Assembly: GCA_964342465.1 (NCBI GenBank)
Contig: CAYFFQ010000001.1
Location: forward strand, 279,691-343,690
Origin: an uncultured Candidatus Poseidoniales archaeon
GTDB taxonomy: Archaea > Thermoplasmatota > Poseidoniia > Poseidoniales > Thalassarchaeaceae
DNA length: 64,000 bases
Direction: 5' to 3'
The translations under genes were made by a program, and so were the position numbers. The notes under the pieces are model-generated. The model was not told the origin of the DNA, ran no database searches, and saw only the letters and a list, made by a program, of their open reading frames with translations. Below, piece by piece: positions 10,916 to 55,607 of this stretch (the stretch's first letter is position 1; every line of letters begins with the position of its first letter).

Positions 10916-12262
10916 GTGAAGCAACCGCCAAGCCACTCCCGTCTTCTCTTCGCATTGACCATCTTCGCCCTCTGTGCCACATTGAGCACACCACCTCACA
11001 ATTCTCTCGGGAACATCTATTCCGGACAATCATCCGATGCTGATACAGCGGGCGACTCTGAGAGAGTCACTTCCAATTGGACAGCGCATCTCCCAGTTTG
11101 GCAGGTGGGTGAAAAGTGGGTCTACGACATCGTCCTCGACGCGAGGGAGATGGTGGCTAACTCGTCCGACCTTGAAGGTGCGGAATTGGACCCATTGGTG
11201 GGAGAAGCGACCATTGAAGTCATGGGTGTGGAAGAGAGAGATGTTGGCGGTGCAATCACTCCTGTCTATCGAATACTCACTGATGCCGAGGTAGTAGGAG
11301 ATGGGAGGGATTTCCCTGCCCCTATCCTTGGAAGGGTGGATGGTTATCTTACCTCTGGATTCACCCTCACCGAATACCTCAGGGTCGGCGACTTGGCGCT
11401 GGTGGAATATGACAAAGAGATTCAAATGAGATTCACTGCTGAGGTCGCCTTCGTTGAACAGACGGTGGAAGTTGCTGATTTCGTTGAGTCAGGCGCATAT
11501 ACACCGCCCCTAGAGTTCTATGATTACCCGATGGCGGACAACGAATCGTGGAATTTAGTGACCAATCTGACCAAGACTTACAGTGGAAGCAGTGATGTGG
11601 TCACCCTACCCGAGCAACCCGAATACTTTGACCAAGAGTGGTTGTTCAACATCAATGAGAGTGGGGATGGTGGTTACGCTGGTTGTGAGAACAGCACCCG
11701 AGTCTGGCAGACCAACCCCGACGGAGAGGTTGAAGAGTGGAGGTGGTGGTGTCCAGCCGTCAATCAGTATTCGCGACGATGGACCAACGATATCGCCCTC
11801 GGTGGAGTGGATGCGGACCTTCAGTTGACCGCATACACAACCCCGACTTCCTCGATGTTCGTAGAAGTGGTTGTGCAACCGGAATCTACTCCCCTGAACA
11901 GCGAAGTTGATATTGTGGTCAACATCACTGACTCATTCGGGAATGCTGTTGTAGGGGAGTCTGGGTTCATTTATCTTCATGGTGTCACACCACTGACATT
12001 CATTACCGACGAAAACGGAACATCACAAGTGAGGATGCAGGTCGGGAACAGTATGGATGACACCCCCACTGCTGATGATTGGGCCACTCATGGGATCGTC
12101 GCCTATCTGCACGCCGACCAAAGTGTCGGGGCGACAACCGTGACGCTTGAAGGAAGTGCGATAGGTGGTCTGTTGAGAATTCATGCCAATAATCTTGCAT
12201 ATCACGCCTCATCAACGATGGCCTCCCAATCGGCAATGTTTGAGGCTTCGGTTAGATACTGA
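10916..12262 (+). CDS. secreted hypothetical protein with C-terminal Ig-like segment
   Basis: 448 aa, GTG start. Signal peptide SRLLFALTIFALCATLSTPP. The segment VVQPESTPLNSEVDIVVNITDSFGNAVVGESGFIYLHG looks like a bacterial Ig-like (Big) strand pattern. No C-terminal TM. Confidence 0.7.
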   Translation: MKQPPSHSRLLFALTIFALCATLSTPPHNSLGNIYSGQSSDADTAGDSERVTSNWTAHLPVWQVGEKWVYDIVLDAREMVANSSDLEGAELDPLVGEATIEVMGVEERDVGGAITPVYRILTDAEVVGDGRDFPAPILGRVDGYLTSGFTLTEYLRVGDLALVEYDKEIQMRFTAEVAFVEQTVEVADFVESGAYTPPLEFYDYPMADNESWNLVTNLTKTYSGSSDVVTLPEQPEYFDQEWLFNINESGDGGYAGCENSTRVWQTNPDGEVEEWRWWCPAVNQYSRRWTNDIALGGVDADLQLTAYTTPTSSMFVEVVVQPESTPLNSEVDIVVNITDSFGNAVVGESGFIYLHGVTPLTFITDENGTSQVRMQVGNSMDDTPTADDWATHGIVAYLHADQSVGATTVTLEGSAIGGLLRIHANNLAYHASSTMASQSAMFEASVRY

Positions 12263-12267
12263 ACTCC

Positions 12268-13374
12268 TCACAGGTCAAGGTCATCCAAGGGGTCGTGTGG
12301 CTCGTCTTCTCCACTCTCATCTGCCGCCTCGCTGTCGCTTACAATCGGAATCACCGGAGCGGTCATTCGTGGTTTCGGCACCATACTCAGCCCGAATCGA
12401 GTGGCTCCGATTCCGATGACGACAAGAACCGCGAAACAGGCGAGCAGTATAGGCATCAGAGAATTAGTTGATTCATTCGCGTCGTGCGGTTCAGTGACAT
12501 AATATCGATAGTCGACCAAGGTGGCCGAAAGGGTCAATGTTCCATTGTGCCATCTCTCCGTGCGCGCAAGAAATCCCTCAGAGCGGAAGAAATCGACGGT
12601 CGTGGTGTTATCGGAAAGGTCAACCCTCTCGACAGCCAAGGTGTCGTGCCTCTTTTCGTTGAGGTCGCCATAGTGAACATCCCTCTCACCTAACACACGA
12701 AATGCAACCTGTGTCACATTGGAGTGGTTGTATTCCCTCTCAGACCAGAGGCCGTGGTTTTCGCGAACCCTCTCAGTGCCACTCACTTCAACCCTCTCTT
12801 CGACATCCCAGATTCCTCCGAGTTCAACTCTCACGGGGAAATGCCCAACCCTCTCGACGAGTTTGACTTCTCTCAGTTCGTGTTCAAGGAGGTTTTCTTC
12901 CCCCCCACCGGAAAATGTCGTGGTGGTGCTCGTCACGCTGTCCAGTTTTTCCCAACCGGCAGTTCCACGCGCCTGCCAATGGGTCGCGTAGTGAGTGATG
13001 CTCATGTTCAGGGTGTCGTTGTCGTAGTTGGTGGTATTTGCCTGCCAACCGACGGAGATGTTGACGGTGTGACTGATTTCCGCCTTGATACAATCACCGG
13101 ACCAAGAGAGGATGGTGCATACTTCGTTTCCCTTATGGGTGACGCGCAATTCTTCCACATCGTTCAGGGTTACCCCTTCGAAGTTCTCTTCGCCTTCCCA
13201 CTGTTCTCTCAGTTTTGCTGTCAGTGATTCAGAGTATCCCTCGTAGACGAACCAGTCATCGGGAGTGTAGTCCGGATTGCTCACCATCTCTATTGCCGAT
13301 ACATGAGGCAGAGGGATGAAGAGGATGATTAATAGGCAGATGAAAGCGTTACGCCCACACTTGACCAGCCTCAT
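12268..13374 (-). CDS. type I membrane protein, hypothetical, acidic DDLDL C-terminus
   Basis: 368 aa, ATG start. Signal peptide NAFICLLIILFIPLPHVSA, C-terminal TM LMPILLACFAVLVVIGIGA, tail ending DEPHDPLDDLDL. Confidence 0.7.
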   Translation of the reverse strand: MRLVKCGRNAFICLLIILFIPLPHVSAIEMVSNPDYTPDDWFVYEGYSESLTAKLREQWEGEENFEGVTLNDVEELRVTHKGNEVCTILSWSGDCIKAEISHTVNISVGWQANTTNYDNDTLNMSITHYATHWQARGTAGWEKLDSVTSTTTTFSGGGEENLLEHELREVKLVERVGHFPVRVELGGIWDVEERVEVSGTERVRENHGLWSEREYNHSNVTQVAFRVLGERDVHYGDLNEKRHDTLAVERVDLSDNTTTVDFFRSEGFLARTERWHNGTLTLSATLVDYRYYVTEPHDANESTNSLMPILLACFAVLVVIGIGATRFGLSMVPKPRMTAPVIPIVSDSEAADESGEDEPHDPLDDLDL

Positions 13375-13442
13375 GTTGTAGCAAGGTGAGAGTTTTTGTT
13401 TTCAGCGTGACGGCGGAATGGGGCAGATTCAAAGCGATTAGG

Positions 13443-13461
13443 GCTCACCCAAAGGGTGAGC
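13443..13461. promoter_or_regulatory. perfect palindrome GCTCACCC-AAA-GGGTGAGC, 21 nt upstream of the subtilase ATG
   Basis: 8-bp arms with an AAA centre. Its core ACCCAAAGGGT is identical to the site at 49615-49625. It sits between a T-rich box (13393-13402) and the GGAG at 13473-13476. Confidence 0.4.
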
Positions 13462-13482
13462 GATATGCAGGTGGAGTCAGGT

Positions 13483-15474
13483 ATGAACCTCAAGCGAGTC
13501 GTCATTTTGACGATAAACCTCTCAGTGATGGCCCTGTTCATCATGCCGTTGATTGGTGCTGCTGCTACCATTCCCGCTTCTGAGGGGGGCGCTCTGAAAC
13601 CGTGGTGGGAGACTACCAACATGGACAAGGATGGCGATAAGATTCACGATGCCATTCCGATAGCAATTCGTAGCACTCAGCGCGATTGGGTTGACGCTGA
13701 GGGGCGCATCGGAGTCATCGTTGATTTTGACCACACACCGACTGAAGCGGATGAAAGAATGTTGGAAAAGAGGGTGGATTTCAGAGTTGAGTTCAGGTAT
13801 CATCTGATAGATTCAATCGCCGGAACCGTCGAAACCAGCAGGATTGGGACTCTTGCCAATCTCCCCGGTGTCGTGCTGGTCGAAATTGACGGAATACTGA
13901 CCATCCAAATGGAGGATGTGAAAGAAGTTCACGGGGTCACTAATGTTTGGGATGAGACAGGTTACACAGGTGCAGGCTCAGTCGTGGCCATCATCGATAC
14001 CGGTATTGACGGCAACCACACTGGTCTTGATGACCTTGATGATGACAATTCCACAAATGACCCGAAAATCATAGGATTCTATGATGTAATCAACGCCCCC
14101 GACCAGACCAACGGTACCGATGTCACGCCTTATGACGACCAAGGTCACGGAAGTCACTGCGCCGGTATCACTGCGGGAACCGGAGCGCCGACCTACGAGC
14201 ATGTCGGCATCGCCCCAGAGGCGCAACTCGTCGGGGTGAAGGTACTCGACTCCGGCGGTTCTGGTTCATTCGCACAGGTGATGCAGGGGATGCAGTGGAC
14301 GGTTGACAATCGTCACAAATTCAACATCAGAGCCGCCTCGATGAGTCTCGGCGGCCCTGGTGCATCAGAATGGACCGCAAGTGAACAGGAGAGCACCAAC
14401 CGGATGGCCAACGAGATGGTCAGGGCAGGTATTGCCCTCTTCATCGCTGCCGGCAATTCAGCCTTTTCCGCCCAGATAGGAACCCCCGGCAGCGCCGAGG
14501 ATGTCATCACGGTGGGTGCGCTGGACAAGGACACCGGCATCGCCATCTATTCATCTCAAGGACCGACTGAAGAGGGTAGAATCAAGCCAAACATAGCCTT
14601 TGTCGGAAGCAATGTCATGTCAGTGGAAGCAAACAGCGGCGATGGCTACACATCTATGTCTGGGACCAGCATGGCGACTCCCGGAGCCGCCGGCCTCGCC
14701 GCTCTCATGTATCAAGCCAATCCAGACCTCTCACCTTTCGATGTCCGTAACATCATGCAGGAGACTGCCACCTATCGGCAATGTCACTACCTGCTCAAGA
14801 ACGAACCTTGTGCTGAAGACCTCATCCCCAAGAATCGTCAGAACAATGTCTACGGACATGGTCATACGAATGCAGAACCCTCGGTAATGGAAGCAGCCAA
14901 CAGGGTGTTCGGCTTAACCCTCTCAATCAATGTATCATCCTTGACAGAAACCGCTAGTGACAACAAGGTTCACATCGGACCGGGTGAAGTGGTTGATTTC
15001 AACATCATTGGAGAACCTGCCGGCAAGGTTCAATGGCGAACATGGGATATGCGTGACTACTGGTCTGACCATCCTGATTTCATAGCCGGTGATACAGATT
15101 TCGCCATCACGCACGCCATGCTGAATGACCGACTCAAGTACCTGCCGGGCAACGAGGTGGTGGGCAACCAGACCATCATCGTTAGGGCTATCACAGGGGA
15201 TAACGCATCAACCAACGCGGTGGTTCACCTGCATGTCATGGGCGACACTCCTCTCACAGTTGGGCAAGAGGGTGGGGGAATTGATGGATTGGTTCTGCTT
15301 CTCGCAGCCCTGTTGTTCATCTTCGCCATCGGCTTGGTGGTCATGTTCCTCATGCTCCGTGGCGTCATCTCCTCTCCTGACAGATGGGCGGAGGTCATTG
15401 AAGGCGATGACTTCGGTGACCGCGAGATGATGGATGGAGAGTTGCTCGACATCATCTCAGGCGACTCCGGTTGA
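13483..15474 (+). CDS. subtilisin-like serine protease (S8), secreted, C-terminal TM anchor
   Basis: Catalytic motifs VVAIIDTGIDGNH (Asp), HGSHCAGI (His), SGTSMATPGAAG (Ser). Signal peptide MNLKRVVILTINLSVMALFIMPLIGAAA, with GGAG 6 nt before ATG 13483 (the ORF is open from GTG 13456). C-terminal TM GLVLLLAALLFIFAIGLVVMFLML plus an acidic tail. Confidence 0.9.
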   Translation: MNLKRVVILTINLSVMALFIMPLIGAAATIPASEGGALKPWWETTNMDKDGDKIHDAIPIAIRSTQRDWVDAEGRIGVIVDFDHTPTEADERMLEKRVDFRVEFRYHLIDSIAGTVETSRIGTLANLPGVVLVEIDGILTIQMEDVKEVHGVTNVWDETGYTGAGSVVAIIDTGIDGNHTGLDDLDDDNSTNDPKIIGFYDVINAPDQTNGTDVTPYDDQGHGSHCAGITAGTGAPTYEHVGIAPEAQLVGVKVLDSGGSGSFAQVMQGMQWTVDNRHKFNIRAASMSLGGPGASEWTASEQESTNRMANEMVRAGIALFIAAGNSAFSAQIGTPGSAEDVITVGALDKDTGIAIYSSQGPTEEGRIKPNIAFVGSNVMSVEANSGDGYTSMSGTSMATPGAAGLAALMYQANPDLSPFDVRNIMQETATYRQCHYLLKNEPCAEDLIPKNRQNNVYGHGHTNAEPSVMEAANRVFGLTLSINVSSLTETASDNKVHIGPGEVVDFNIIGEPAGKVQWRTWDMRDYWSDHPDFIAGDTDFAITHAMLNDRLKYLPGNEVVGNQTIIVRAITGDNASTNAVVHLHVMGDTPLTVGQEGGGIDGLVLLLAALLFIFAIGLVVMFLMLRGVISSPDRWAEVIEGDDFGDREMMDGELLDIISGDSG

Positions 15475-15516
15475 GCCATCCAGTTTGGATTCCTCTCTAT
15501 CGTGAGGTGTTGAATA

Positions 15517-16368
15517 ATGGGTTGGCCAATCCTCATCTCAGCACTTATCGCCGGGTTGGCGGCGATAACTGTCACAGTGGTGATTGAGAAATGGGGTGGC
15601 CTACATGGTGGGGCGTTGGCTACAGTACCCTCAACCATCATTCCTGCAGCCATCGGTATTTGGTATGGCTCAGAAAGTGTTGAGACATTTCAGTCGGCCA
15701 TGTACATAGTTCCTCTCGGGTTGGTGGTCAATGGGCTCTTCCTTTACATGTGGCGTATCCTCCCCTCGAGAATACCGCACCACCCCCTCACTCTTCGTCT
15801 GACCATGATTTCGACCCTTTCTCTCATTGTCTGGGCTGCTGCTGCCGCTGCCGGCATTGAATTATTCATCAGATTGATTGCTATCGGGGTTCCTAGCCTC
15901 ACTCTCGCTGTCGCATGGCTATGCACAGGTCTTATTTTCGGTCTGCTCTCGACCCGCACCCATCGTCCAACTCCGCGCGGTAAGAGGAAGGTAAGCACAT
16001 TGACACTCGTAGCCCGCGGTTTGGCTGCCGCCATTTCCATCGGGGCTGCAGTCTGGTTGGCTGGTATCGGCATACCGCTGCTGAGCGGAATAATGACCAT
16101 ATTTCCAGCCATATTCCTCACCAGCATGGTCGCCCTCTGGCTGGCTCAAGGCGAAGCCGTTCCAGCAGGAGCAATCGGACCGATGATATTCGGGGCTCAA
16201 TCGGTATCCCTCTTCGCGATACTAGTGGCTAGCCTATACCCTCACACATCTACCATTGTCGGTCTTTCCGTTACAACAATGGCGGCTTGGGTGGTCTCGG
16301 TGGGGGCAGTCAACTTGCCAGTTTGGTATTATCTAAGGAGCAGGTCAGAGGGAGTTGAATTGGTGTAG
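15517..16368 (+). CDS. polytopic membrane protein (about 8 TM), hypothetical
   Basis: 283 aa, almost entirely hydrophobic helices. GAGGTG (15504-15509) lies 7 nt before the ATG. The gene starts 43 nt after the subtilase stop on the same strand. Two similar halves are possible (..GGALATVPSTIIPAAIG.. vs ..SGIMTIFPAIFLTSMVA..). Confidence 0.7.
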   Translation: MGWPILISALIAGLAAITVTVVIEKWGGLHGGALATVPSTIIPAAIGIWYGSESVETFQSAMYIVPLGLVVNGLFLYMWRILPSRIPHHPLTLRLTMISTLSLIVWAAAAAAGIELFIRLIAIGVPSLTLAVAWLCTGLIFGLLSTRTHRPTPRGKRKVSTLTLVARGLAAAISIGAAVWLAGIGIPLLSGIMTIFPAIFLTSMVALWLAQGEAVPAGAIGPMIFGAQSVSLFAILVASLYPHTSTIVGLSVTTMAAWVVSVGAVNLPVWYYLRSRSEGVELV

Positions 16369-16605
16369 GATGGTGGATGCTACACCCACTCCTAAACATC
16401 GTTTATTCACCAATCGGAGCAATAACTCAGGACGATTAACCTACTACCCCCGAGACATTGAAACTTGATGTACAGGAGTAATACGATTTTGAGCCGTATT
16501 GAAAGCCATACCTCTCCTTGGCCCCATCAGGGCGGAGATAGTGTAATGGGGATAGGTGCATTGAAAATGAACAACAAGCCCCCGTCACTGATGGAGGGGT
16601 GACTG

Positions 16606-17856
16606 TTGGGCGACAAGCGATACATCAGAGATGCCCTTCATGGAGACATCATCCTTCCCGACACAGTCAGCAGAATCGTCGATACTCAGACCTTTCAGCG
16701 GCTCCGCTACATCCAACAGTTGGCAACATGTCATTACGCATTTCCTTCGGCGACACATACCCGTTTTTCCCATTCCATAGGGGTTTTTCACCTCGCTACC
16801 CGCTTGGTTGCGTTACTCAGAGAGCGACACCCTCGAAAAATTAGTGACCGAGATGCTGAACTCGTCCCCCTCGCGGCCCTCTTACACGACGTCGGGCATC
16901 CACCCTTCTCACACATGTTCGAGACACCTGAGGTTTTCACAACCTACGCCTCCCATGAACAGTGGGGTAGGGCGATGATGGTTGACCATGAGTGTGACCT
17001 CTCACGTTCGCTATGTGAACAACTTGGGGATGATGTCAAGAGATTGCTCGCCATCATGGAAGGTGATGAGTCAGTGGAACCATTTCTACATGAGATTGTT
17101 TCATCACAACTCGATGTCGACCGCCTTGATTATCTGATGCGTGACCAGTTTGTGACCGGAGCGGATGTCGGTGGATTCGATATGGAGCGGATTCTCAGAG
17201 CCATCAGGATTTCAACTGATGGACACCTCGTCATCAGCGAAGAATCGGTCTCAGCGGTGGAAGCGTATCTAGTCACCAGACTACACATGTATCAATCAGT
17301 ATATTTCCACAAACTCACCATGCTCACTTCCGTCTACTATGTCAGAGCCCTGAACAGAGCGCGACAATTGCACGAAGAAGGCTCACTCCCTCTCTCATTG
17401 AAGATGCGAGACATGCTTTCGAGCAGGACACTAACCCCCTATCGATACTCCCAGTTGACCGACCCGTTCGTCATCGCTGATGTTTTCCATTGGTCGGACC
17501 ATGATGATGAGATTCTTTCCGGTTATGCGCGAAGACTCTCCAGCCGCGACCATTTTCACAAGAGAATTAGAATTGTCATGGATGAAAACTCAGTTTCTGA
17601 TGTGCGAGACGGACTTTCGGACATTCTGCAAGAACACGGTTATGATGAGCAACATGACTTGATACACACTCGCCTCTCCAAGGAGGGATACATGCCCTAC
17701 AAAGGTGGTGTCAGGCTTGAGGATGGGAGGGATGTTTCTGAGGTATCTCCGATGATTGCCTCGATGTCCGAGCCGTTCACCTCATCGATGCTCTTCGTGC
17801 CGGCTGATGTGCGAGAGGAATGCGAGCGTTACATACGAGCCACCCAAGTCCGATGA
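16606..17856 (+). CDS. HD-domain phosphohydrolase, SAMHD1/dGTPase-like
   Basis: IRDALHGDI...FQRLRYIQQL, THTRFSHSIGV, LLHDVGHPPFSH and QLDVDRLDYLMRD match the HD ..H..HD..D pattern of SAMHD1-like dNTP triphosphohydrolases. TTG start as given by the ORF track; the true start is uncertain. Confidence 0.8.
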   Translation: MGDKRYIRDALHGDIILPDTVSRIVDTQTFQRLRYIQQLATCHYAFPSATHTRFSHSIGVFHLATRLVALLRERHPRKISDRDAELVPLAALLHDVGHPPFSHMFETPEVFTTYASHEQWGRAMMVDHECDLSRSLCEQLGDDVKRLLAIMEGDESVEPFLHEIVSSQLDVDRLDYLMRDQFVTGADVGGFDMERILRAIRISTDGHLVISEESVSAVEAYLVTRLHMYQSVYFHKLTMLTSVYYVRALNRARQLHEEGSLPLSLKMRDMLSSRTLTPYRYSQLTDPFVIADVFHWSDHDDEILSGYARRLSSRDHFHKRIRIVMDENSVSDVRDGLSDILQEHGYDEQHDLIHTRLSKEGYMPYKGGVRLEDGRDVSEVSPMIASMSEPFTSSMLFVPADVREECERYIRATQVR

Positions 17857-17863
17857 AGGGCTT

Positions 17864-17960
17864 GGTTGCGGCCATCGCTGTTCACATCCTGATGTGCAGT
17901 AGTTTGCGCCTCGTAGGTAGGATGAGTGGCTAGGTTGCAGCCATCGCTGTTCACATCCTG
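17864..17960. repeat. 28-bp direct repeat x2 (27/28 identical), period 69 bp
   Basis: GGTTGCGGCCATCGCTGTTCACATCCTG (17864-17891) and GGTTGCAGCCATCGCTGTTCACATCCTG (17933-17960). They lie in the convergent gap between the HD gene stop (17856) and the tRNA 3' end (17999). Confidence 0.85.
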
Positions 17961-17998
17961 GTCTGCGACAAATAATGAAGAGCAGAGATGAATCAAGG

Positions 17999-18073
17999 TG
18001 GGCCTGACCGGATTCGAACCGATGGCTACTCGGTTATGAGCCGAGTGCTCTAACCAGACTAAGCTACAGGCCC
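17999..18073 (-). tRNA. tRNA with anticodon CAU (elongator tRNA-Met, or tRNA-Ile2 if C34 is modified)
   Basis: A 75-nt cloverleaf folded by hand: acceptor GGGCCTG/CAGGCCC, D stem GCTT/GAGC, anticodon stem CTCGG/CCGAG with loop CTCATAA, 5-nt variable loop, T arm ATCGG-TTCGAAT-CCGGT, discriminator A. CCA is not fully encoded. G1:C72 argues against an initiator. Confidence 0.9.
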
Positions 18074-18165
18074 CCGCTCCGCCGGTGATGCCTGCCATTG
18101 TTGAAAGTTGGCTTTGATACGGATGCGCCCGCACGCTGAAATAGGATTGGCTGAGAGGCGCAATC

Positions 18166-19185
18166 ATGCGGTGCGAAAAGTTCGCTTCGGCGGTGACCAC
18201 ATCCCTTCTCATCGGCACCATCCTTGCCCTCTTTGCCGCGCCTGCGTCGGCGCAGTTGGGCAATCCCAACCCCGCAATCAATCTGACCTGTGAGGGAGAA
18301 ATTGTGGAAATCGATGTCAGTCCGGGTGCCAGCAGGGTGGGCTCATTGGATTGCTTGTTGGAGAACCCCTCTATCCATCAAGAGGATGTCAATATCTCAG
18401 TCGATGAGATAGACCTTCAGGTCTCCTATCCCAACAGCATCTCGGTGGCGCCGAACAGTGATACAACATTCACCGTCAGTTGGGCGGGCGAAATCGGCGC
18501 ACCGGTAGCCTCGTTCTCCACCATAGTGGAAGCGACCGTCACCACAGTGAACGGTCTGCCGTACCCCTTGGGTGAATCAAAGAGTGAGAGTGTGACGGTT
18601 GACATTCTTCCGTTTGGGCGGCCGTGGATTGACATTTCAGGGCAGGAGTTGGCGCTTGAACATGGTCAGAGTTCGACGGTGAATTTCTCACTTCGCAACA
18701 CTGGAAATGCCGAGGATACGCTGCGGGTCACCATTGAAAACCAGAGCGGTTTGGAACAGTTCGGATTCACCTTCGACTACTCAGCCACTTCTGCGAGGTT
18801 GGGGGTCAACGAATCAGAGGAGATCACCCTCACCATCACCGCATCTGAAGAGATTCTTGACGGCTCATTCGTCGTCATCCTTCAGGCTACGAGCGAGATG
18901 GCAGAAGATGATGGTGAACCTTGGGTGGTGGAGGAGAACTTCAGATTACAATCTCTTGCCAAGGAAGAATCCTTCCTCACGACATCAGTTGACAGTGTAC
19001 CTGCTTGGGCCATCACCACAACTATGGTGCTGGCCGGTTTGGCTGTCGTTGGTGTCATCGTGGTGGCTGTCAGAGTGATGCTTTCCAAGCGTGGTGGGAT
19101 GAAAATATCCGGCGACAGCGCCGCAGACGTTGATTTTGAATTCGACGATGAGGAGTTCGCAGATTTCGAGTTGGATGACCTTTGA
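18166..19185 (+). CDS. cell-surface protein, two-domain, TM-anchored, acidic tail (paralog of 19266..20222)
   Basis: 339 aa. Signal peptide LLIGTILALFAAPASA. The segment FSLRNTGNAEDTLRVTIEN resembles CARDB/COG1470-type surface domains. TM WAITTTMVLAGLAVVGVIVVAV; tail ends DVDFEFDDEEFADFELDDL. Confidence 0.8.
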   Translation: MRCEKFASAVTTSLLIGTILALFAAPASAQLGNPNPAINLTCEGEIVEIDVSPGASRVGSLDCLLENPSIHQEDVNISVDEIDLQVSYPNSISVAPNSDTTFTVSWAGEIGAPVASFSTIVEATVTTVNGLPYPLGESKSESVTVDILPFGRPWIDISGQELALEHGQSSTVNFSLRNTGNAEDTLRVTIENQSGLEQFGFTFDYSATSARLGVNESEEITLTITASEEILDGSFVVILQATSEMAEDDGEPWVVEENFRLQSLAKEESFLTTSVDSVPAWAITTTMVLAGLAVVGVIVVAVRVMLSKRGGMKISGDSAADVDFEFDDEEFADFELDDL

Positions 19186-19265
19186 ATCAGTTGCAACTAT
19201 CAAGCATCCTACTGCCCCATATCCTTAAAACCGATGGACTGTGACAACTCACCGTAGGTGAGGAT

Positions 19266-20222
19266 ATGGATGGACGAGTGATGCGCAGGATGGCTTTTAT
19301 CTTGGTGCTTTATACCTTGAGCATGTGGGCTGGGGTCGCCACCAGCAATGTCGCAGCGCAGGGTGTTTCACCCAATCCGACCGTAGCAGTCACCTGCTCT
19401 CCGGCGGCTATTCCGATTGAGGTCTACCCCGGCGCCCCTCGAACTGGCACGACCTACTGCACTGCCACCAATCCGACTCAATATGTTGAGGATGTGACCA
19501 TCACCGTGACTGCAGGTGGTCTCGCTGTTGCCCACCCCGGTCTCATCACGGTGGGCGCCTACGATTCCACGACATTCGAAGTGGTTGTTCGTGGGGACAA
19601 CAGAATGGCCGAAGGAAGCCGTACAATCACCATCGTCGCCCGTGTGACTTCCGCAAGTGGGGTACCCTGTACAACCTGCCCCTCAGTCCAGTCAGCGGTG
19701 ATGGCGACCATCATGCAGTTCAGCAGACTGCGTGTGGAAGCAGAAGAACCATTTAGACAACTCAGGCCAAAGGTCGATTACATCTTCGAGTTCAAGGTCT
19801 ATAACGACGGCAACGCATACGACCGATTCAATGTTGACATCGTCAATCGTGATGACTTGGAGGAGAAGGATTTCCAAATCGTTCTGCCAACCATCAGCAC
19901 CGAGATTGAGCCACAGGCCCCACCGGATAAAATGCGGGTGCAGATACGTACTCCCAAGATTCAAGGATGGTCGGACGACTATCATCAACTTCAGTTCAGA
20001 GCGACAAGTGATTACAGTGTCAGAACTGAAGGGGTGGCTAACTATCAAACTCAGATGGTGACCATCTATGTTCGTGGCATCTATCTGCCCGGTTTTGAAC
20101 TCCTCCCTTCCATCTCCATGGTGGCTCTAGGAGCCGCATTCGCAGCCCGCCGTCGCAATTCTGACAGTGAGGAGATGATTGACTTTGACGACCTCACTCC
20201 ACTCGGCGCTCCCGGACTCTGA
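19266..20222 (+). CDS. cell-surface protein, paralog of 18166..19185
   Basis: 318 aa. N-terminal regions align: AQGVSPNPTVAVTCSPAAIPIEVYPGAPRTGTTYCTATNPTQYVEDVTITV vs AQLGNPNPAINLTCEGEIVEIDVSPGASRVGSLDCLLENPSIHQEDVNISV. Second domain has FKVYNDGNAYDRFNVDIVN. C-terminal TM and tail EEMIDFDDL. The start (19266, 19281 or 19290) is uncertain. Confidence 0.8.
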   Translation: MDGRVMRRMAFILVLYTLSMWAGVATSNVAAQGVSPNPTVAVTCSPAAIPIEVYPGAPRTGTTYCTATNPTQYVEDVTITVTAGGLAVAHPGLITVGAYDSTTFEVVVRGDNRMAEGSRTITIVARVTSASGVPCTTCPSVQSAVMATIMQFSRLRVEAEEPFRQLRPKVDYIFEFKVYNDGNAYDRFNVDIVNRDDLEEKDFQIVLPTISTEIEPQAPPDKMRVQIRTPKIQGWSDDYHQLQFRATSDYSVRTEGVANYQTQMVTIYVRGIYLPGFELLPSISMVALGAAFAARRRNSDSEEMIDFDDLTPLGAPGL

Positions 20223-20539
20223 ACACTTTCCTTTGTCCATGGGGTTCGGTCGTATCGAACGATGTGTTTCTCTCTGCTTGACGGGGCGATTATCCCATCT
20301 CCACGAGGTGGTTGGGGCGAAAACATAACGCAAAACACATCTCATTTATTTATGTGGAAATGTAGTGCTGAAATAGATTCATAATTCCCTTTGTCGGTGA
20401 GATGCACGAGAACAACGGTCAATTCTCGGCTCCCGAAAATGAGGACATCAAGGATAAACAGTTCTTTCCTATTGCCACTAAGGCAACGGGTTCATAACTG
20501 TTGGTGAATCACAAACCACCGTATTGAGGGGTTTGCTGG

Positions 20540-21895
20540 ATGACAGGTGGTTTACTTGAAAAAGCGAAAAGTCAGGAGATTGAGTTATCCCCAGATTCAG
20601 ATGACGAGGTCGAAGCAGCCGTGCAACAGATTGATGATGGCGCTGGTGGACTTCTCGCCAAAGTTTCAGCATCTGAGGATTCGGCCCATCCTACTCAAAT
20701 GGACAAGATTCTCGCAGGTCTCTCCGTCGCGCTGATGCTCTTCTCGATGTACGGCCTTTTCAATCTCAGTTCACTCTTTTCATCAACTCCGGTTATCGGT
20801 GACAATGCTGGCTGGCTCATCCTAGTGACCACGATTGCTGCACTGGCTACAGGTTCGTACGCCTTGAGGAATCTCGTAAATGGGGGGACACCTCTTTCCA
20901 AAGCGCAATGGATGGCCCTCGTCGGGGCGTGGTTGGTGCTCTCGCTCGGACCATACTTGGCGGCGATGAACTTCGCTGGTTCGGTAGCCATTACCGGCAT
21001 GACCCACGACGAGGATTCAAATTCCATCTCCTTTGATTACCGTTATTCATCATCCCTTTTATCCTCCTCCGGACCGTTTGAGACAGTAGATGTGCGCGTA
21101 ACTCAAGGAGGTGAAGAGGTCTGGAGTGGTACGGCTGTGGCAGAGGAAAGTTCTCCCGGACTCGGTTCCTTCACCCTCTCAATATCCGATTTTTATTCAG
21201 AAAACGCCTTCCAAGTGACGGGCAAGAAGGTCACCTTGGAGACAAATGATGGTTCATCATACAGCGCGACCACCACCGAGGTTCCGTATCGCGTTCACGC
21301 CGCCCTTTCAGGTTTGAGTGAGGGTATGGCGGTGCTTGACAGCCGCTCCCTGACTCGTACGATTGACGATGCAGACGGAGCCATGACCGGTGTTATCGAC
21401 GACTGTGACAACTGCAAGGATTTGCTCGGTGTGGTCTTGGATGTGTGGGCTGGGTCCGGCCTCTTAGATGTGGACAGCGATACAAGGCCGGCGCCGGCAC
21501 AGGGGGATTACACGATTCTTGGAGAGGTCTTCGGCCCCGATGGCAATATCGCATTCACCTACCCGTTGGTGACTGTGGATGGCACGGTAGCGTCGTGGGA
21601 CAATTCGGCAGGTCACGGTTCGGGGAATGGAGTCATCGGCGACTACGGCTCCCAACTCAATTTGCCGGGGACCACCACGGATGGCGACCCCTTGGGTAGG
21701 GAGTACATCGAGAGAGACGATGTCCTCAGTGACTACGGCTGCTACGAGTTCAAGGTGACCGTCACCATGTTGGAAGATTGGGCCTCAGGCCTTGCGCCGA
21801 CAGTATCTACTGACGAGTTCACATTCCAGCGTGAGATGAACAGCGATGAGAGTGGTGAGCAGGGCATAGAAACCCTTACTCTCGGGTGCAACTGA
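20540..21895 (+). CDS. membrane protein: acidic N-terminal cytoplasmic segment, ~4 TM, large extracytoplasmic C-terminal domain; hypothetical
   Basis: 451 aa. The N-terminus has two GGLL.K motifs (MTGGLLEKA, GAGGLLAKV) around EIELSPDSDDEVE. Hydrophobic helices span aa ~57-155. The TGA stop lies inside the first degenerate unit of the downstream 21-bp array. Confidence 0.7.
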   Translation: MTGGLLEKAKSQEIELSPDSDDEVEAAVQQIDDGAGGLLAKVSASEDSAHPTQMDKILAGLSVALMLFSMYGLFNLSSLFSSTPVIGDNAGWLILVTTIAALATGSYALRNLVNGGTPLSKAQWMALVGAWLVLSLGPYLAAMNFAGSVAITGMTHDEDSNSISFDYRYSSSLLSSSGPFETVDVRVTQGGEEVWSGTAVAEESSPGLGSFTLSISDFYSENAFQVTGKKVTLETNDGSSYSATTTEVPYRVHAALSGLSEGMAVLDSRSLTRTIDDADGAMTGVIDDCDNCKDLLGVVLDVWAGSGLLDVDSDTRPAPAQGDYTILGEVFGPDGNIAFTYPLVTVDGTVASWDNSAGHGSGNGVIGDYGSQLNLPGTTTDGDPLGREYIERDDVLSDYGCYEFKVTVTMLEDWASGLAPTVSTDEFTFQREMNSDESGEQGIETLTLGCN

Positions 21896-21914
21896 CCCAT
21901 CCTTCAGAGCCGAC

Positions 21915-22126
21915 TGGCCTTGCGTGGGGTGCAACTGACCTTTCTTTGGGATGCGCCTGGCTTTGCGTGTGGTGCAACTGGCCTTGCGTGGGGTGCAACT
22001 GACCTTGCGTGTGGTACAACTGGCCTTGCGTGTGCTGCAACAGGACTTGCGTGGGGTGCAACTGACCTTGCGTGGGGTGCGACTGGCCTTTCCTTGGGAT
22101 GCTCCTGGCCTTGCGTGGGACGAAAC
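21915..22126. repeat. 21-bp tandem repeat array, about 10 units (consensus TGRCCTTGCGTGKGGTGCAAC)
   Basis: Units start at 21915, 21936 (22-nt variant), 21958, 21979, 22000, 22021, 22042, 22063, 22084 (22-nt variant) and 22106. Degenerate copies extend to ~21876 and ~22135. The array fills the convergent gap between the stops at 21895 and 22222. All overlapping ORFs are repeat artefacts. Confidence 0.9.
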
Positions 22127-22221
22127 TGACAATCCAACCTGCTCGGATGCCGTCAGTCCACACCGTTCTGCGGTCTGTTTTGTTCTATAGAATAAATGTT
22201 CTTTCCGAGGTGTGTGCCGAT

Positions 22222-23964
22222 TCACAAGTCGTCCAAATCCTCATCTAGATGGTTGATTACTTCCCGTGAGATGGTGATGGTCTTGGGACTTGCATCCTTG
22301 TCGCGAGTTGCGGTGAAGTAGACCACGAGTCCTAAACCGACGACCAGAGCGACTATGAAACTGATGAGTAGCGCACTATCTCCCTCACTCACTTCAGCGG
22401 CGGTGCTCCATTCGGTTGTAAGGGTGCTATCACCTCCACCGAGGGTGCCATTCACAACCACTTGCGACGGGGTCATCGGCATACACCTCAATGTATGATT
22501 ACCACTTGATGGTACTCCCCATTTGAGGTCAATCGTGGCGGTTTCACCAACTCCGAGGAGTGCTGCTGGATAGGGTGGTGAAATATCCGCCCTAACTTCT
22601 CCGACATGACACTCCAGTGGTACACTCGCTGCGGCGAGGCCGTTATTGGTTATGGTCACCCTCACCTCTGCTCTCTTACCGACCGAGGCCGCTTTCTCCA
22701 ATGAGATACCGGTCACCGAAACATCAGGTAGAATTGGGAAAAGGACTTCCACATCACTGCTCTTCTCAAGTGAGTTGTTGGCTCCATAGTAAGTGCCCCA
22801 GGCGGTGAACCATTCAACATCGGAGATTCTCGCATCCTCACTCCAAACCGTTCCGTTGGCATACCCAATCTCGACGATGCGAGGTCCCTGTTGATAGTTG
22901 GCTGGGACGATGTAGGAGCCATCAACCATGGAATGACCGAAGAGAGTCTTTTCTTGAGGCCCGACGCCAGTCAGATTGAATGTGATGCCGGAGCCGGGGA
23001 AATGAAGAGTCTGTTCTCCCACCTGCCTCTCCCAGAGGTCGATTATTCCACCTGAGCCATCTACTTCGCTCAATGATATCTCAGCCGCGGCATCTGCTTT
23101 GATGTCATGGTCCTCCCTGCTTCCACTGAAAGAGCCGCCGCTCATGGTAATCGATGCTGATTCCCCCGCCAATATCAATGGGCCAGAGGTATTGATGTCT
23201 GTTGAAGTTGAGGAAAATGCGCCGTTGATGGTCACATCAGCCCCATTCATCTCTGAGTCAATGGCGACAAGAGTGCCGCCTTCGGAGATGTGGAGAGAGA
23301 ATCCGGCGCTTCCTCGCAGCAACCAGTTTTCATTGTCGAGGTCCGCTGCTTCATAGACATTGGTGGTGGTCGCCCGATTGACTTCAATTCTGTCCACCAC
23401 CAGTTGCCCATATTCACCGACATTCTGATTGAAGTAGAGTGTACCACCTCCGCCGCTGACAACTCCGGCGGTGATGGTGTGGCTGTCTCCTGACATGTCC
23501 TCGTTCGGCCCTTCATTCCAGCGCACCGTGAAATTCGACAGATTGTAATCTGTGGAACTGAAGATGGTGATTGTGAACAGACCGAACTGCTCAGGCACGA
23601 ACAATGTCGCTTCGTCTCCATAACCAGCCCACATCTGGAGGTCAGAGGGTGGATACTGCGAACTGAGAGATGCGTTTTCAAGAACGACTCCGCCGTTAAT
23701 CACGATACTTGTACCGTTGGCAATTGATAGGTTGCCATCAATCCTCAGAGTGGCGCCAGCCGCGACGGTCACCATTCCATCAAGAACCATATTCCCCGAC
23801 CAGTCGGTGTCATCTGAAATGGTGACGGCGGAGCCATCTTGCGGGGGGGGGTCTCCAGCAACAACCAGTGCACTGTTCATCATCATAGTGAGGCATACCA
23901 AGACGACCAACCCAGTCACTAGCGTTCCTCTCGCCATACTTCCTGCGAGTCGGTGGTAGGCCAT
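22222..23964 (-). CDS. TM-anchored surface protein with beta-helix-like N-terminal half and CARDB-like domain
   Basis: The likely start is ATG 23964 (MAYHRLAGSMARGTLVTGLVVLVCLTMMMNSALVVA) or 23937. The TTG-extended ORF to 24102 would overlap carS. CARDB-like VSVTGISLEKAASVGKRAEVRVTITNNGLAAASVPLECHVG. TM ALLISFIVALVVGLGLVVYF; tail ends HLDEDLDDL. Confidence 0.8.
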   Translation of the reverse strand: MAYHRLAGSMARGTLVTGLVVLVCLTMMMNSALVVAGDPPPQDGSAVTISDDTDWSGNMVLDGMVTVAAGATLRIDGNLSIANGTSIVINGGVVLENASLSSQYPPSDLQMWAGYGDEATLFVPEQFGLFTITIFSSTDYNLSNFTVRWNEGPNEDMSGDSHTITAGVVSGGGGTLYFNQNVGEYGQLVVDRIEVNRATTTNVYEAADLDNENWLLRGSAGFSLHISEGGTLVAIDSEMNGADVTINGAFSSTSTDINTSGPLILAGESASITMSGGSFSGSREDHDIKADAAAEISLSEVDGSGGIIDLWERQVGEQTLHFPGSGITFNLTGVGPQEKTLFGHSMVDGSYIVPANYQQGPRIVEIGYANGTVWSEDARISDVEWFTAWGTYYGANNSLEKSSDVEVLFPILPDVSVTGISLEKAASVGKRAEVRVTITNNGLAAASVPLECHVGEVRADISPPYPAALLGVGETATIDLKWGVPSSGNHTLRCMPMTPSQVVVNGTLGGGDSTLTTEWSTAAEVSEGDSALLISFIVALVVGLGLVVYFTATRDKDASPKTITISREVINHLDEDLDDL

Positions 23965-23984
23965 CAATGCGCCGCTCTCGGGGG

Positions 23985-23994
23985 ATAGATTATA
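23985..23994. promoter_or_regulatory. TATA-like box ATAGATTATA in the 56-nt divergent gap
   Basis: It lies 21-30 nt from ATG 23964 (minus gene) and 27-36 nt from ATG 24021 (carS). This fits one bidirectional archaeal promoter driving near-leaderless transcripts. Inference only. Confidence 0.3.
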
Positions 23995-24020
23995 CCACCA
24001 TCTGCACAGCCGAGGGAGTG

Positions 24021-24701
24021 ATGGCAGGGACACCTCCTTGGGATTCGCTGTGGATGGCTCCTCTATTGGTCCTATGGCTCTATCTGCCGGGCTACCTGTC
24101 AAACACCACGGCGATGCTCGGGGGCAGGTGGATCCCAGCTCTCATCGGTGTATCATCCAAACCGATTGATGGGGGTCGGATTCATAGTGACGGCAACCGC
24201 TTGCTGGGGGACGGCAAGACTTGGAACGGCCTTGTCGGGGGAACCATCGGTGGTGGTCTTGTCGGCATGCTCACACATTGGCTCGGGAGTGCATCTCTTT
24301 CCTCCGCTCCGTTTCTCGACCCGCTCGGCGAATATCCTTCACTAGGGATGGGAGACATCACTTCTGCGTGGTATTGGGTCGGTGGTCAATGGGGTGCATC
24401 TCTCATACTCGGAATGGTGCTGGGATTCGGTTGTATGGTAGGTGATTCCACAGGTTCATTCTTCAAGAGAAGAAAAGGGCTGAAGCGAGAGGGCGAGGTG
24501 AGCAGCAGTGCTCCACTCCTTGACACAATACCGTTCGCCATATCCACATTCATCTTCGGCCAGCTTTTCCTCGCTCCTTCCATAGTATCGGATTCTGAGT
24601 TGTTGGTCGGTATGGTGCTGTTGCTCCTCCTTACGCCAATCATTCACCGTTCATTCAATGTCATGGGCTACAAACTCGGGTTGAAATCGGTCCCTTACTG
24701 A
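24021..24701 (+). CDS. carS: CDP-archaeol synthase (CDP-2,3-bis-O-geranylgeranyl-sn-glycerol synthase, DUF46/CarS family)
   Basis: Polytopic. YLPGYLSNTTAMLGG...KPIDGG...DGNRLLGDGKTWNGLVGGTIGG matches the CarS pattern (..PAY.AN....LGG..PID.G....G.R..GDGKTW.G). Start is ATG 24021 or nearby; the ORF is open from 23967. Confidence 0.75.
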   Translation: MAGTPPWDSLWMAPLLVLWLYLPGYLSNTTAMLGGRWIPALIGVSSKPIDGGRIHSDGNRLLGDGKTWNGLVGGTIGGGLVGMLTHWLGSASLSSAPFLDPLGEYPSLGMGDITSAWYWVGGQWGASLILGMVLGFGCMVGDSTGSFFKRRKGLKREGEVSSSAPLLDTIPFAISTFIFGQLFLAPSIVSDSELLVGMVLLLLLTPIIHRSFNVMGYKLGLKSVPY

Positions 24702-37450: not shown

Positions 37451-37492
37451 CTAAGGTGCCTTTCAACAGGTTTGACCAAGGAGTCTGTATCA

Positions 37493-55391: not shown

Positions 55392-55523
55392 ACCGCGCCA
55401 AGAAGAACCCACCTCAGAGTTCCCGAATCGGTTGTTGTTTTGGAGATACGATGCTGACCATCCCGTTGAGTTTTTTGTAGCCAGAAATTTGTTTTGGGTG
55501 GTGCTGGAAACTATGCATTGATA

Positions 55524-55540
55524 TCTGGCCTTAGGCCAGA
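55524..55540. promoter_or_regulatory. perfect palindrome TCTGGCC-TTA-GGCCAGA between two giant genes
   Basis: 7-bp arms with a 3-nt A/T centre. It lies 133 nt after the stop at 55391 and 67 nt before TTG 55608. It is followed by CACCAAAGGGG (55552-55562), a one-base-shorter version of the ACCCAAAGGG core. Confidence 0.3.
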
Positions 55541-55607
55541 GTCAACCGTGACACCAAAGGGGAGATTTCAAAGGTGGCGTTTGACTGTCCGAGCGGGAGG
55601 GGATGTC

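Follow-up and report, generated by a model that had tools for sequence, protein, structure and literature searches.

Conserved LDDL-type C-terminal ends on unrelated surface proteins of the Poseidoniales, a candidate cytoplasmic docking motif

The stretch of DNA analysed here (hereafter the window) covers 64,000 nucleotides of the genome of an uncultured Candidatus Poseidoniales archaeon (2.2 Mb in 45 contigs, designated C1, C2 and so on), in which a cluster of genes includes five, named p1 to p5 (Table 1), whose products end behind their last transmembrane (TM) helix in an acidic C-terminal tail. The initial annotation had described these tails as one recurrent design, in which a TM helix and a short basic stretch are followed by an acidic hydrophobic-D-x-D-D-L element on unrelated surface proteins, and had interpreted this element as a short linear motif (SLiM) read by a common cytoplasmic partner. 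Our analysis partly confirms this observation and partly supports its interpretation, the motif being real and conserved, limited to three of the five tails where all five had been proposed, and more widespread in the genome than initially noticed.

Translation of the window returned the five tails at the positions and with exactly the letters initially quoted, and every one of them is preceded by a predicted last TM helix and by a few basic residues (K/R). All five proteins also start with an N-terminal signal or anchor, and the tails would therefore lie on the cytoplasmic side according to the positive-inside rule. A hydrophobic-DDL element was read in four of the five tails (LDDL in p1, p3 and p5, FDDL in p4), the subtilase p2 being without it in its acidic tail of 31 amino acids (aa; ..GELLDIISGDSG). 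Orthologues were drawn from up to 40 relatives, distributed over three families of the Poseidoniales, and further homologues, labelled Candidatus Poseidoniales or Thalassarchaeaceae (Marine Group II), were taken from a large protein collection, while families were checked with Pfam and NCBIfam profiles and the relatedness of members with BLASTP. Orthologues of p1, p3 and p5 with no more than 45-68% overall identity keep the hydrophobic-D-D-L element. In p3, the tail of 32 aa is a series of acidic-Phe repeats with ..EEFADFELDDL at its end: all 28 database homologues in the range of 54-68% identity end ..[EDN][FL][GAE]LDDL, 24 of the 28 as ..FDD[FL]GLDDL, more distant homologues end ..LDDF or ..LDEF, and the motif is kept in 17 of 18 distinct genome orthologue tails. 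As for p5, with a tail of 27 aa ending ..HLDEDLDDL, the end ..L[DEN][DE][LI] was found in 29 of the 41 listed database homologues (most end ..DELD[DE]L[DE]DL), 8 more of these 41 keep internal ..ELD[DE]L.. units and end ..LDEIED, a sub-clade ends ..ELDDLEDDLDEIED, and 12 of 21 distinct genome orthologue tails have kept the motif. The p1 protein, for which no Pfam or NCBIfam family was matched, has a tail of 43 aa (..DEPHDPLDDLDL) ending ..DPLDDLDL, and its orthologues display ..IDSLDD[LI]D.. in 7 of 16 distinct tails, the remainder being short acidic ends without the motif.

The idea of a motif common to all five tails thus stands for p1, p3 and p5, which share it in conserved form, and falls for p2, which is generically acidic, and for p4, of which the FDDL is not conserved. 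Indeed, the orthologues of p2 keep a juxtamembrane PEWAPF and an acidic, Phe-containing ..DDFEV.. patch, their ends vary (e.g., ..KKRSAS), and no conserved terminal hydrophobic-DD-hydrophobic was found among them. The p4 tail (..MIDFDDLTPLGAPGL) corresponds in its orthologues (loci L002-L018) to ..RRRNxEE[FI]DESLNPxP[IL]SAPGL, with a conserved LPGF-TM-RRR and a conserved ..P[IL]SAPGL end, and FDDL occurs in the window genome only. On this reading of their orthologues, p2 and p4 are outside the motif class. In addition, the proteins had been presented as unrelated, which does not apply to p3 and p4 (paralogues, BLASTP E=2e-22, both matching NF041740) and applies to the other members, between which no BLAST match was obtained. 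Paralogy as a cause of the shared tails was rejected, since p3 and p4 are the only pair with a BLAST match.

The motif extends well beyond the cluster. Listing the genome proteins with hydrophobic-D-[DE]-hydrophobic near their C-terminus, and then checking their orthologues, revealed at least four more unrelated type-I surface proteins outside the window with the same kind of end. One is a beta-propeller giant, which ends ..LDSLIDDLL in its own genus and ..IDTSFLDDLL in other families at ~30% identity, and of which all 23 distinct versions from the order Poseidoniales keep D-D-L-L unchanged. The family of the WD40/TSP3-like protein displays, order-wide, ..AIPTM[LM]DLD.. or ..[NS]L[DE]DL(L), and an M6 metalloprotease, an NPCBM_assoc protein and a further protein on contig C21 complete the series (Table 1). 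Terminal 12-16-mers of motif tails are, as examples, ..SGDSELDSLIDDLL, ..EALPDALDLDDLL, ..DEEFDDFGLDDL, ..ERDELDDLDDL and ..DPNAIPDLDDLL. The ectodomains of the members differ by Pfam, and among all of them only p3 and p4 give a BLAST match. Their topology is the same throughout, with an N-terminal signal or anchor, a last TM helix and K/R directly after it, followed by a tail of 25-150 residues. Counted from the helix, the tails measured 27-147 residues. The motif itself is typically LDDL or LDDLL, often within repeated hydrophobic-D-D units, and occupies the free C-terminus or stops a few residues short of it. By contrast with these members, the examples initially cited from outside the cluster did not hold up: LLDFTEAAFIDD, EFEEEFDE and EIDLDEDD are acidic patches straight after the TM helix, in tails of which two end Trp-rich and the third ends ..FDFDGNNYLNHKELQEAAKSFTKK, and ISPDLDLEM is likewise without a conserved version.

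Codon usage indicates the level at which the motif is conserved. In the beta-propeller giant, the last two Leu are Leu in 23 of 23 versions with all six Leu codons in use, and the Asp-Asp is likewise found in 23 of 23 versions with both Asp codons in use; the motif codons of p3 and p5 show the same synonymous turnover. Such turnover demonstrates selection on the protein and argues against selection on charge only. Taking the orthologue tails and their codons together, we show that purifying selection on the protein sequence keeps the motif in at least seven families sharing no relationship apart from the tail, namely p1, p3, p5, the beta-propeller giant, the WD40/TSP3-like protein, the M6 metalloprotease and the NPCBM_assoc protein. 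Conservation at the DNA level (a terminator or a regulatory site at the 3′ end) was rejected on account of the synonymous codon turnover. The conserved island covers 4-8 residues, and tail length as well as the remaining tail sequence drift freely around it. This corresponds to what is expected of a SLiM, that is, a short conserved island beside a poorly conserved flank of variable length, on non-homologous proteins.

Table 1. Location of the genes, tails and other features considered in the window and elsewhere in the genome (positions without a contig number refer to the window)
Feature	Location	Strand	Description
Window	C1:279691-343690		
Gene cluster	10916-24102		Contains three motif-bearing genes (p1, p3, p5)
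p1	12268-13374	-	368-aa type-I membrane protein, signal peptide, one C-terminal TM helix
p1 tail	12271-12378		Motif codons ~12271-12291
p2	13456-15474	+	Membrane-anchored subtilase, Peptidase_S8 (PF00082, E=1e-52)
p2 tail	15358-15471		
p3	18166-19185	+	339-aa surface protein, NF041740 choice-of-anchor T (146.3 bits vs cut-off 70)
p3 tail	19084-19182		FELDDL at 19165-19182
p4	19266-20222	+	318-aa paralogue of p3, NF041740 (269.1 bits vs cut-off 70)
p4 PGF-type signal	~20088-20159		YLPGF-TM-RRRN
p5	22222-24102	-	626-aa type-I surface protein, Pfam CARDB
p5 tail	22225-22308		Motif ~22225-22248
Secreted protein	inside 10916-24102		448 aa
Polytopic membrane protein	15517-16368		283 aa
HD-domain protein	16606-17856		
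Membrane protein	20540-21895		451 aa
Window giant	2271-7214	-	
Window giant	37472-41908	+	
Window giant	55494-61259	+	
Beta-propeller giant	C17:34934-43579		2,881 aa; tail ~120 aa, weakly acidic, not conserved
WD40/TSP3-like protein	C14:4966		1,136 aa; ends ..ALPDALDLDDL[LF]
M6 metalloprotease	C2:12752		Ends ..DPNAIPDLDD[LMF][LFY] within genus
NPCBM_assoc protein	C4:65859		Family ends ..DDLDEIEL[IV]DD
Further protein	C21:28381		Ends ..FDFDDDDL
Archaeosortase	C2:160791-161624		TIGR04125, 99.6 bits vs cut-off 75
PolD DP2	C14:46759-50754		Ends ..KVFTLDDFV
aIF1A (locus L222)	C18:757-1245		PF01176, 162 aa
EndoIV-like protein (locus L224)	C8:68070-69239		AP_endonuc_2, ends ..DDDLFGEDEEDDDLF
344-aa protein	C21:27350-28384		Ends ..QTSLFDF
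Proteins ending x-EEE (examples)	C8:45427-46212		
	C1:165196-165963		

The genome-wide counts tell the same story in terms of position and protein class. They rest on a set of 1,501 genes called with our own codon-score open reading frame picker and on TM helices predicted with a Kyte-Doolittle window, by which a few proteins, e.g. PolD DP2, are falsely predicted as TM proteins. The expression initially proposed for the motif, [LIMF][DE]x(0,1)[LIMF]D[DE]L, proved too narrow: it matched 2 tails, both of them within the window, where shuffles would give 0.11. When the motif was sharpened to hydrophobic-DD-hydrophobic ending within 6 residues of the C-terminus, and each protein's last 25 residues were shuffled as control, 12 TM-predicted proteins carried it against 2.26 in shuffles (~five-fold, P<3e-4), and holding out the window cluster left 9 TM proteins against 2.14 expected (P=3e-4). 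Soluble proteins showed no enrichment of the sharpened motif (2 observed vs 2.05 expected). Along the TM-predicted proteins, the rate of hydrophobic-DD-hydrophobic per 1000 was 3.4 over the last 3 positions, 1.5 over positions 3-6 and 1.8 over positions 6-10 from the end, compared to ~0.4 elsewhere, and no such C-terminal rise was seen in soluble proteins. In an unbiased scan covering every reduced-alphabet 4-mer of the last 9 residues of TM-tail proteins, hDDh (h, hydrophobic) ranked third (9 vs 1.76), behind xEEE patterns, and DDhh and DhDD were also among the top ten. The enrichment over composition-matched controls that the initial annotation had asked for is therefore found for the core motif, as a positional effect restricted to TM proteins, and the conservation of tails among orthologues is found for the core motif in p1, p3, p5 and four families elsewhere.

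These figures bear directly on an explanation without any specific reader, in which acidic low-complexity tails would grow by slippage of hydrophobic-D-D units of 9 nucleotides and would be selected on bulk properties only, such as charge balancing the basic juxtamembrane stretch, solubility, cytoplasmic retention of the C-terminus or cation binding. We regard it as unlikely, and it has several observations on its side. The proteome is indeed acidic (D 6.7%, E 7.0%, K 3.1% and R 5.6% over the 1,501 calls, i.e. D+E 13.7% vs K+R 8.7%), and acid-rich segments have an equal hydrophobic content everywhere, the hydrophobic share of their non-acidic residues being 0.42-0.44 in soluble proteins vs 0.44 in TM tails. 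Moreover, the number of units varies among orthologues (LDDLDDL vs LDDLDDLDDL, DDF repeats), and p2, some p1 orthologues and the orthologues of p5 in another family (f3) are acidic without the motif. Bulk selection of this kind does not account for Leu residues that stay unchanged at a fixed spacing while all six codons are used, for the confinement of the motif to the last ~10 residues, for the ..DDLL conserved at the end of the beta-propeller giant's otherwise unconserved and at most weakly acidic 120-aa tail, or for the fact that soluble C-termini of equal acidity show no such enrichment. The suspicion that an acidic proteome could create the motif by chance is thus justified for the loose acidic flavour, with its equal hydrophobic share, and not for the sharpened motif (12 vs 2.26). 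A composition both acidic and hydrophobic that would be special to TM tails was rejected as a candidate, since soluble acid-rich segments are equally hydrophobic.

We therefore come to the reading in which the LDDL(L) ends are a cytoplasmic short linear docking motif on single-pass type-I surface proteins of the Poseidoniales, to which we give an even chance on the sequence evidence at hand. The motif would be read by a cytoplasmic partner as follows: the peptide would form one turn of an amphipathic or 3-10 helix, its Leu side chains would plug into a basic-rimmed hydrophobic pocket of a cytoplasmic protein, and the flexible tail would serve as a leash. Where units are repeated, for instance in p3, p5 and the C21 protein, they may add avidity, and the motif would in this manner tether, cluster or position surface proteins from inside. 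Several points weigh against such a docking function. No recurrent cytosolic gene was found beside the member genes in a neighbourhood survey, which gave no partner candidate. The motif is lost in 9 of 16 distinct p1-family tails and replaced by others in orthologues of p5 and of the M6 metalloprotease in another family, so it is not indispensable. In statistical terms, the motif definition was sharpened after inspection of the data, the numbers are small (~8-10 proteins per genome), and both gene calls and TM calls are home-made. An exact-tripeptide scan of the last 8 residues gave DLL and DDI at P~0.006 among hundreds of candidates, which is not significant after multiple testing, so that the signal requires the degenerate form of the motif. 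A first within-tail shuffle (tails of 5-80 aa, motif at any position) gave 5 vs 1.04 overall, and no signal without the window cluster (1 vs 0.84); this control is misleading, because it ignores position and excludes long tails. The FtsZ C-terminal peptide was tried as a look-alike and rejected, as the two FtsZ homologues end ..SRNLDFIN and ..SRFGFQRFD. As a side observation on the replaced ends, the p5 orthologues (L038-L045) and those of the metalloprotease (L137-L144) in another family of the order have no LDDL and carry other conserved motifs instead (W.DA[DE]GNPI[VI] and LDPWGRP[IV]D), as if the end-tags of tails were swapped between lineages on one protein family.

The initial annotation had further stated that no PGF-CTERM or archaeosortase-type signal is present, and this statement is wrong. 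The p4 protein carries a tripartite PGF-type C-terminal signal (LPGF, TM helix and RRRN), which scores 18.4-21.6 bits against the Heimdall-CTERM model NF045529, just below its cut-off of 24. At least 8 other proteins of the genome have PGF-like ends (CTERM scores of 13-21 bits, all sub-threshold), and an archaeosortase is encoded. Consequently, the suggestion that the acidic tails are an alternative replacing PGF-type signals is not sustained, as these signals and an archaeosortase coexist with them in the genome. The p4 signal is followed by an extension of 20 aa, itself conserved, which is unusual since such signals normally end the protein; if the archaeosortase cleaves p4, this extension would be discarded with the helix. 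PGF-CTERM and the LDDL ends are alike in that each labels archaeal surface proteins at the C-terminus and comes with a TM helix and a basic cluster. They differ in that the PGF signature precedes the TM helix and the protein ends after the basic cluster, whereas the LDDL signature ends a cytoplasmic extension of ~25-150 aa. This difference is at the core of why we find it extremely unlikely that the motif is a new processing signal of archaeosortase or rhombosortase type, i.e. a cleaved sorting tag. The motif does sit on surface proteins in a genome encoding an archaeosortase, and the p3/p4 family is named "choice-of-anchor" since its members use different C-terminal anchors. A sortase-type signature, however, lies on the outer side of the TM helix, with the protein ending a few basic residues after the helix, and here the element is found 25-150 residues past the helix, on the cytoplasmic side; furthermore, p1, p2, p3 and p5 match no CTERM model and show no conserved element of the PGF kind ahead of their last TM helix, YLPGF being present in p4 only.

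Within the docking reading, the closest known relatives of the motif are found at the C-termini of soluble proteins, and it may work like a C-terminal PCNA-interacting peptide (PIP), a DIDDI end or a stalk-type SLiM, though it sits on membrane proteins. The C-terminal PIP peptide (cPIP) of the Pyrococcus abyssi PolD subunit DP2 (KKRVISLEEFFS) is without Gln, adopts a 3-10 helix of one turn that fits into a hydrophobic pocket, and binds PCNA as well as primase (PMC7101311). The DP2 of our genome aligns with this peptide (..VISLEEFFS), and its ..TLDDFV has almost the same letters as the surface-tail ends ..DLDDLF and ..LDDLL. The likeness comprises a hydrophobic-acid-acid-hydrophobic-hydrophobic order at the extreme C-terminus, a flexible linker that varies and the lack of a canonical Gln, and the difference is that DP2 is a soluble replication enzyme with aromatic last positions, whereas the best-conserved tails use Leu only and are membrane-anchored. 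In detail, PIP position 1 is D, T, I or E, not Q, in the families of the beta-propeller giant, the metalloprotease, the WD40/TSP3-like protein, p3 and p5; the hydrophobic-x-x-hydrophobic-hydrophobic spacing is present in the first three; and positions 7 and 8, which are both aromatic in a PIP box with an aliphatic residue at position 4, hold Leu-Leu in each of the 23 versions of the giant, sometimes F/Y in the metalloprotease and WD40/TSP3-like families, and a single terminal Leu in p1, p3 and p5. Two more soluble ends are worth mentioning: the acidic tail of the EndoIV-like protein carries ..DDDLF twice, once as its very end, and the two copies are probably a tandem non-canonical PIP box, and the end of a 344-aa protein (Table 1) is a canonical PIP box by its letters.

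As regards translation, eukaryotic eIF1A ends DIDDI, which was reported as important for the interaction with eIF5B, and archaeal aIF1A is said to have neither the long tail nor DIDDI (PMC9226500). The aIF1A of our genome has an acidic tail of ~55 aa ending ..DDDDDVDDLFE. These tails share with ours an acidic disordered stretch ending hydrophobic-D-D-hydrophobic (..LDDL in p3 and p5, ..DDLL in the beta-propeller giant, ..LDDMF in the WD40/TSP3-like family) and differ in belonging to a translation factor, the LDDL carriers being membrane proteins with unrelated ectodomains; of the definition "carried by eIF1A, bound by eIF5B domain IV", the part on the carrier does not apply to the surface proteins. 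The ribosomal stalk peptide (aP1 ..LSALFG) likewise has an acidic run followed by L-x-x-L-F, is multivalent and uses hydrophobic grooves on several partners, and it is set apart by a conserved Gly, an aromatic residue and its ribosomal location, the x positions being Asp in the LDDL tails, from which Gly is usually absent. The aP0 of our genome ends ..GFGGLGDLFG. The stalk tip contacts hydrophobic grooves of aEF2, aEF1A and aIF5B through L103, L106 and F107, and the generic nature of the grooves recognizing the stalk was stressed (PMC5887453). Beside these peptides, we observed that [DE]-hydrophobic-hydrophobic-Gly (..DLEDFFG, ..SEMFG) is enriched in the last 9 residues of TM-tail proteins (DhhG 7 vs 1.4, EhhG 8 vs 1.6), more weakly in soluble ones, and recalls the stalk ..DLFG end.

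These resemblances open the way to a reading in which the tails are membrane-tethered copies of the cytoplasmic peptide class and bind, as moonlighting ligands, PCNA, primase or a translational GTPase (aIF5B, aEF1A, aEF2), which we consider quite improbable. That DP2, the EndoIV-like protein, aIF1A and aP0 of the same genome have similar ends speaks for it, as do the ends LDDLF, LDDMF and LDDFY in the metalloprotease and WD40/TSP3-like families, which have the same hydrophobic-x-x-hydrophobic-hydrophobic spacing. Against it, aromatic residues are absent from the best-conserved members (Leu-Leu in each of the giant's 23 versions, single Leu in p1, p3 and p5), whereas the likely PIP peptides of the genome are aromatic at their last positions (..DDFV, ..DDDLF, ..QTSLFDF); Gln is absent from PIP position 1; it is not apparent what a cell would gain from holding PCNA or translation factors at the membrane; and a sequence class alone cannot assign a receptor when grooves are generic (PMC5887453). 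For the first of these reasons, the best-conserved tails never using the aromatic residue that the soluble look-alikes do use, we favour a dedicated, separate reader over PCNA, primase or a translation GTPase. We give only a slim chance to the more specific proposal that the LDDL(L) tails mimic the PolD, aIF1A or stalk peptide, so that PCNA, primase or a translational GTPase would be physically recruited by the surface coat to the cytoplasmic face of the membrane. If true, such recruitment would couple the envelope to replication or translation, and would be one channel of a eukaryote-like "cytoplasmic tail code", beside Trp-rich modules and other end-tags.

Eukaryotic sorting motifs DxxLL and [DE]xxxL[LI] combine a type-I protein, a basic juxtamembrane stretch, an acidic cluster and a C-terminal Leu-Leu. 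The LDDL tails appear to match this architecture and differ in spacing (DDLL, not DxxLL), and no GGA or AP adaptors are known in the Poseidoniales. C-terminal hydrophobic or acidic tags are also classic protease or adaptor signals, and the ends could act as a C-degron or anti-degron, a signal for turnover or quality control that would be read by a membrane-associated protease or unfoldase such as LonB, the PAN-proteasome or Cdc48 and would determine how long surface proteins last. For our motif, location at the free C-terminus does matter, and proteome-wide x-EEE ends suggest a special selection on C-termini in this lineage. On the other hand, 2-4 residues often follow the motif (..LDDIDET, ..LDEIELIDD, ..DDLDEIED), so the free carboxylate is not always part of it, and multivalent repeats suit docking better; we accordingly see a role in turnover as rather improbable.

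The Poseidoniales, or Marine Group II archaea, belong to the most abundant microbes in the surface waters of the ocean; to our knowledge, none of them has been cultured and the organisation of their envelope is unstudied. No relevant report was found in the literature on cytoplasmic tails of Poseidoniales, and nothing similar for archaeal surface proteins in the literature searched or in the family libraries used. In this context, a conserved end-peptide on unrelated proteases, adhesin-like giants and beta-propeller proteins would imply a cytoplasmic reader, and a short sorting or docking motif in a type-I tail is an organisation usually discussed for eukaryotic cells. Being short, sharply defined and, in one giant, invariant order-wide, the motif offers a concrete bait for a partner search.

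The remaining observations concern the surroundings of the motif. Besides p1 to p5, the cluster contains the genes of a secreted protein, a polytopic and a further membrane protein and an HD-domain protein (Table 1). The order and spacing p5, p4, p3, p2, p1 are the same on single contigs of genomes of the same genus or family (e.g., G001:C6, G022:C2, G021:C5), this conservation of gene order covering p1 to p5 of the cluster. Among the three giants of the window, two have tails with Trp-rich ends (..GFEFEGWTPQQVQEALAAGWTVEQL.. and ..TYPGWKWDPETNQWVPDQ) and one has the end ..FDFDGNNYLNHKELQEAAKSFTKK, which looks EF-hand-like by eye only. The Trp-rich tails are also cytoplasmic ends of surface proteins, but on different proteins from those with the acidic LDDL peptide of 4-8 residues.

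As for the x-EEE ends, 37 of the 1,501 called proteins end exactly in this way, none of them in the window, and terminal Glu runs are non-monotonic in length (1:208, 2:20, 3:34, 4:3). Soluble as well as membrane proteins have such ends, the preceding residue is mostly G, S, A or T, and TGA comes next in 32 of the 37. Over the whole set, TGA is the stop codon of 1,271 of the 1,501 called genes (85%). An origin as Shine-Dalgarno by-product was rejected, most of these ends being without a close downstream gene. The corresponding DNA pattern (GARGARGARTGA) occurs 16-53 times per genome in 40 of 40 relatives across the order, vs 0-7 for the reversed control, and a LivG-like ABC ATPase is extended by a ..GxGEEE end that only its closest (Poseidoniales) homologues share.

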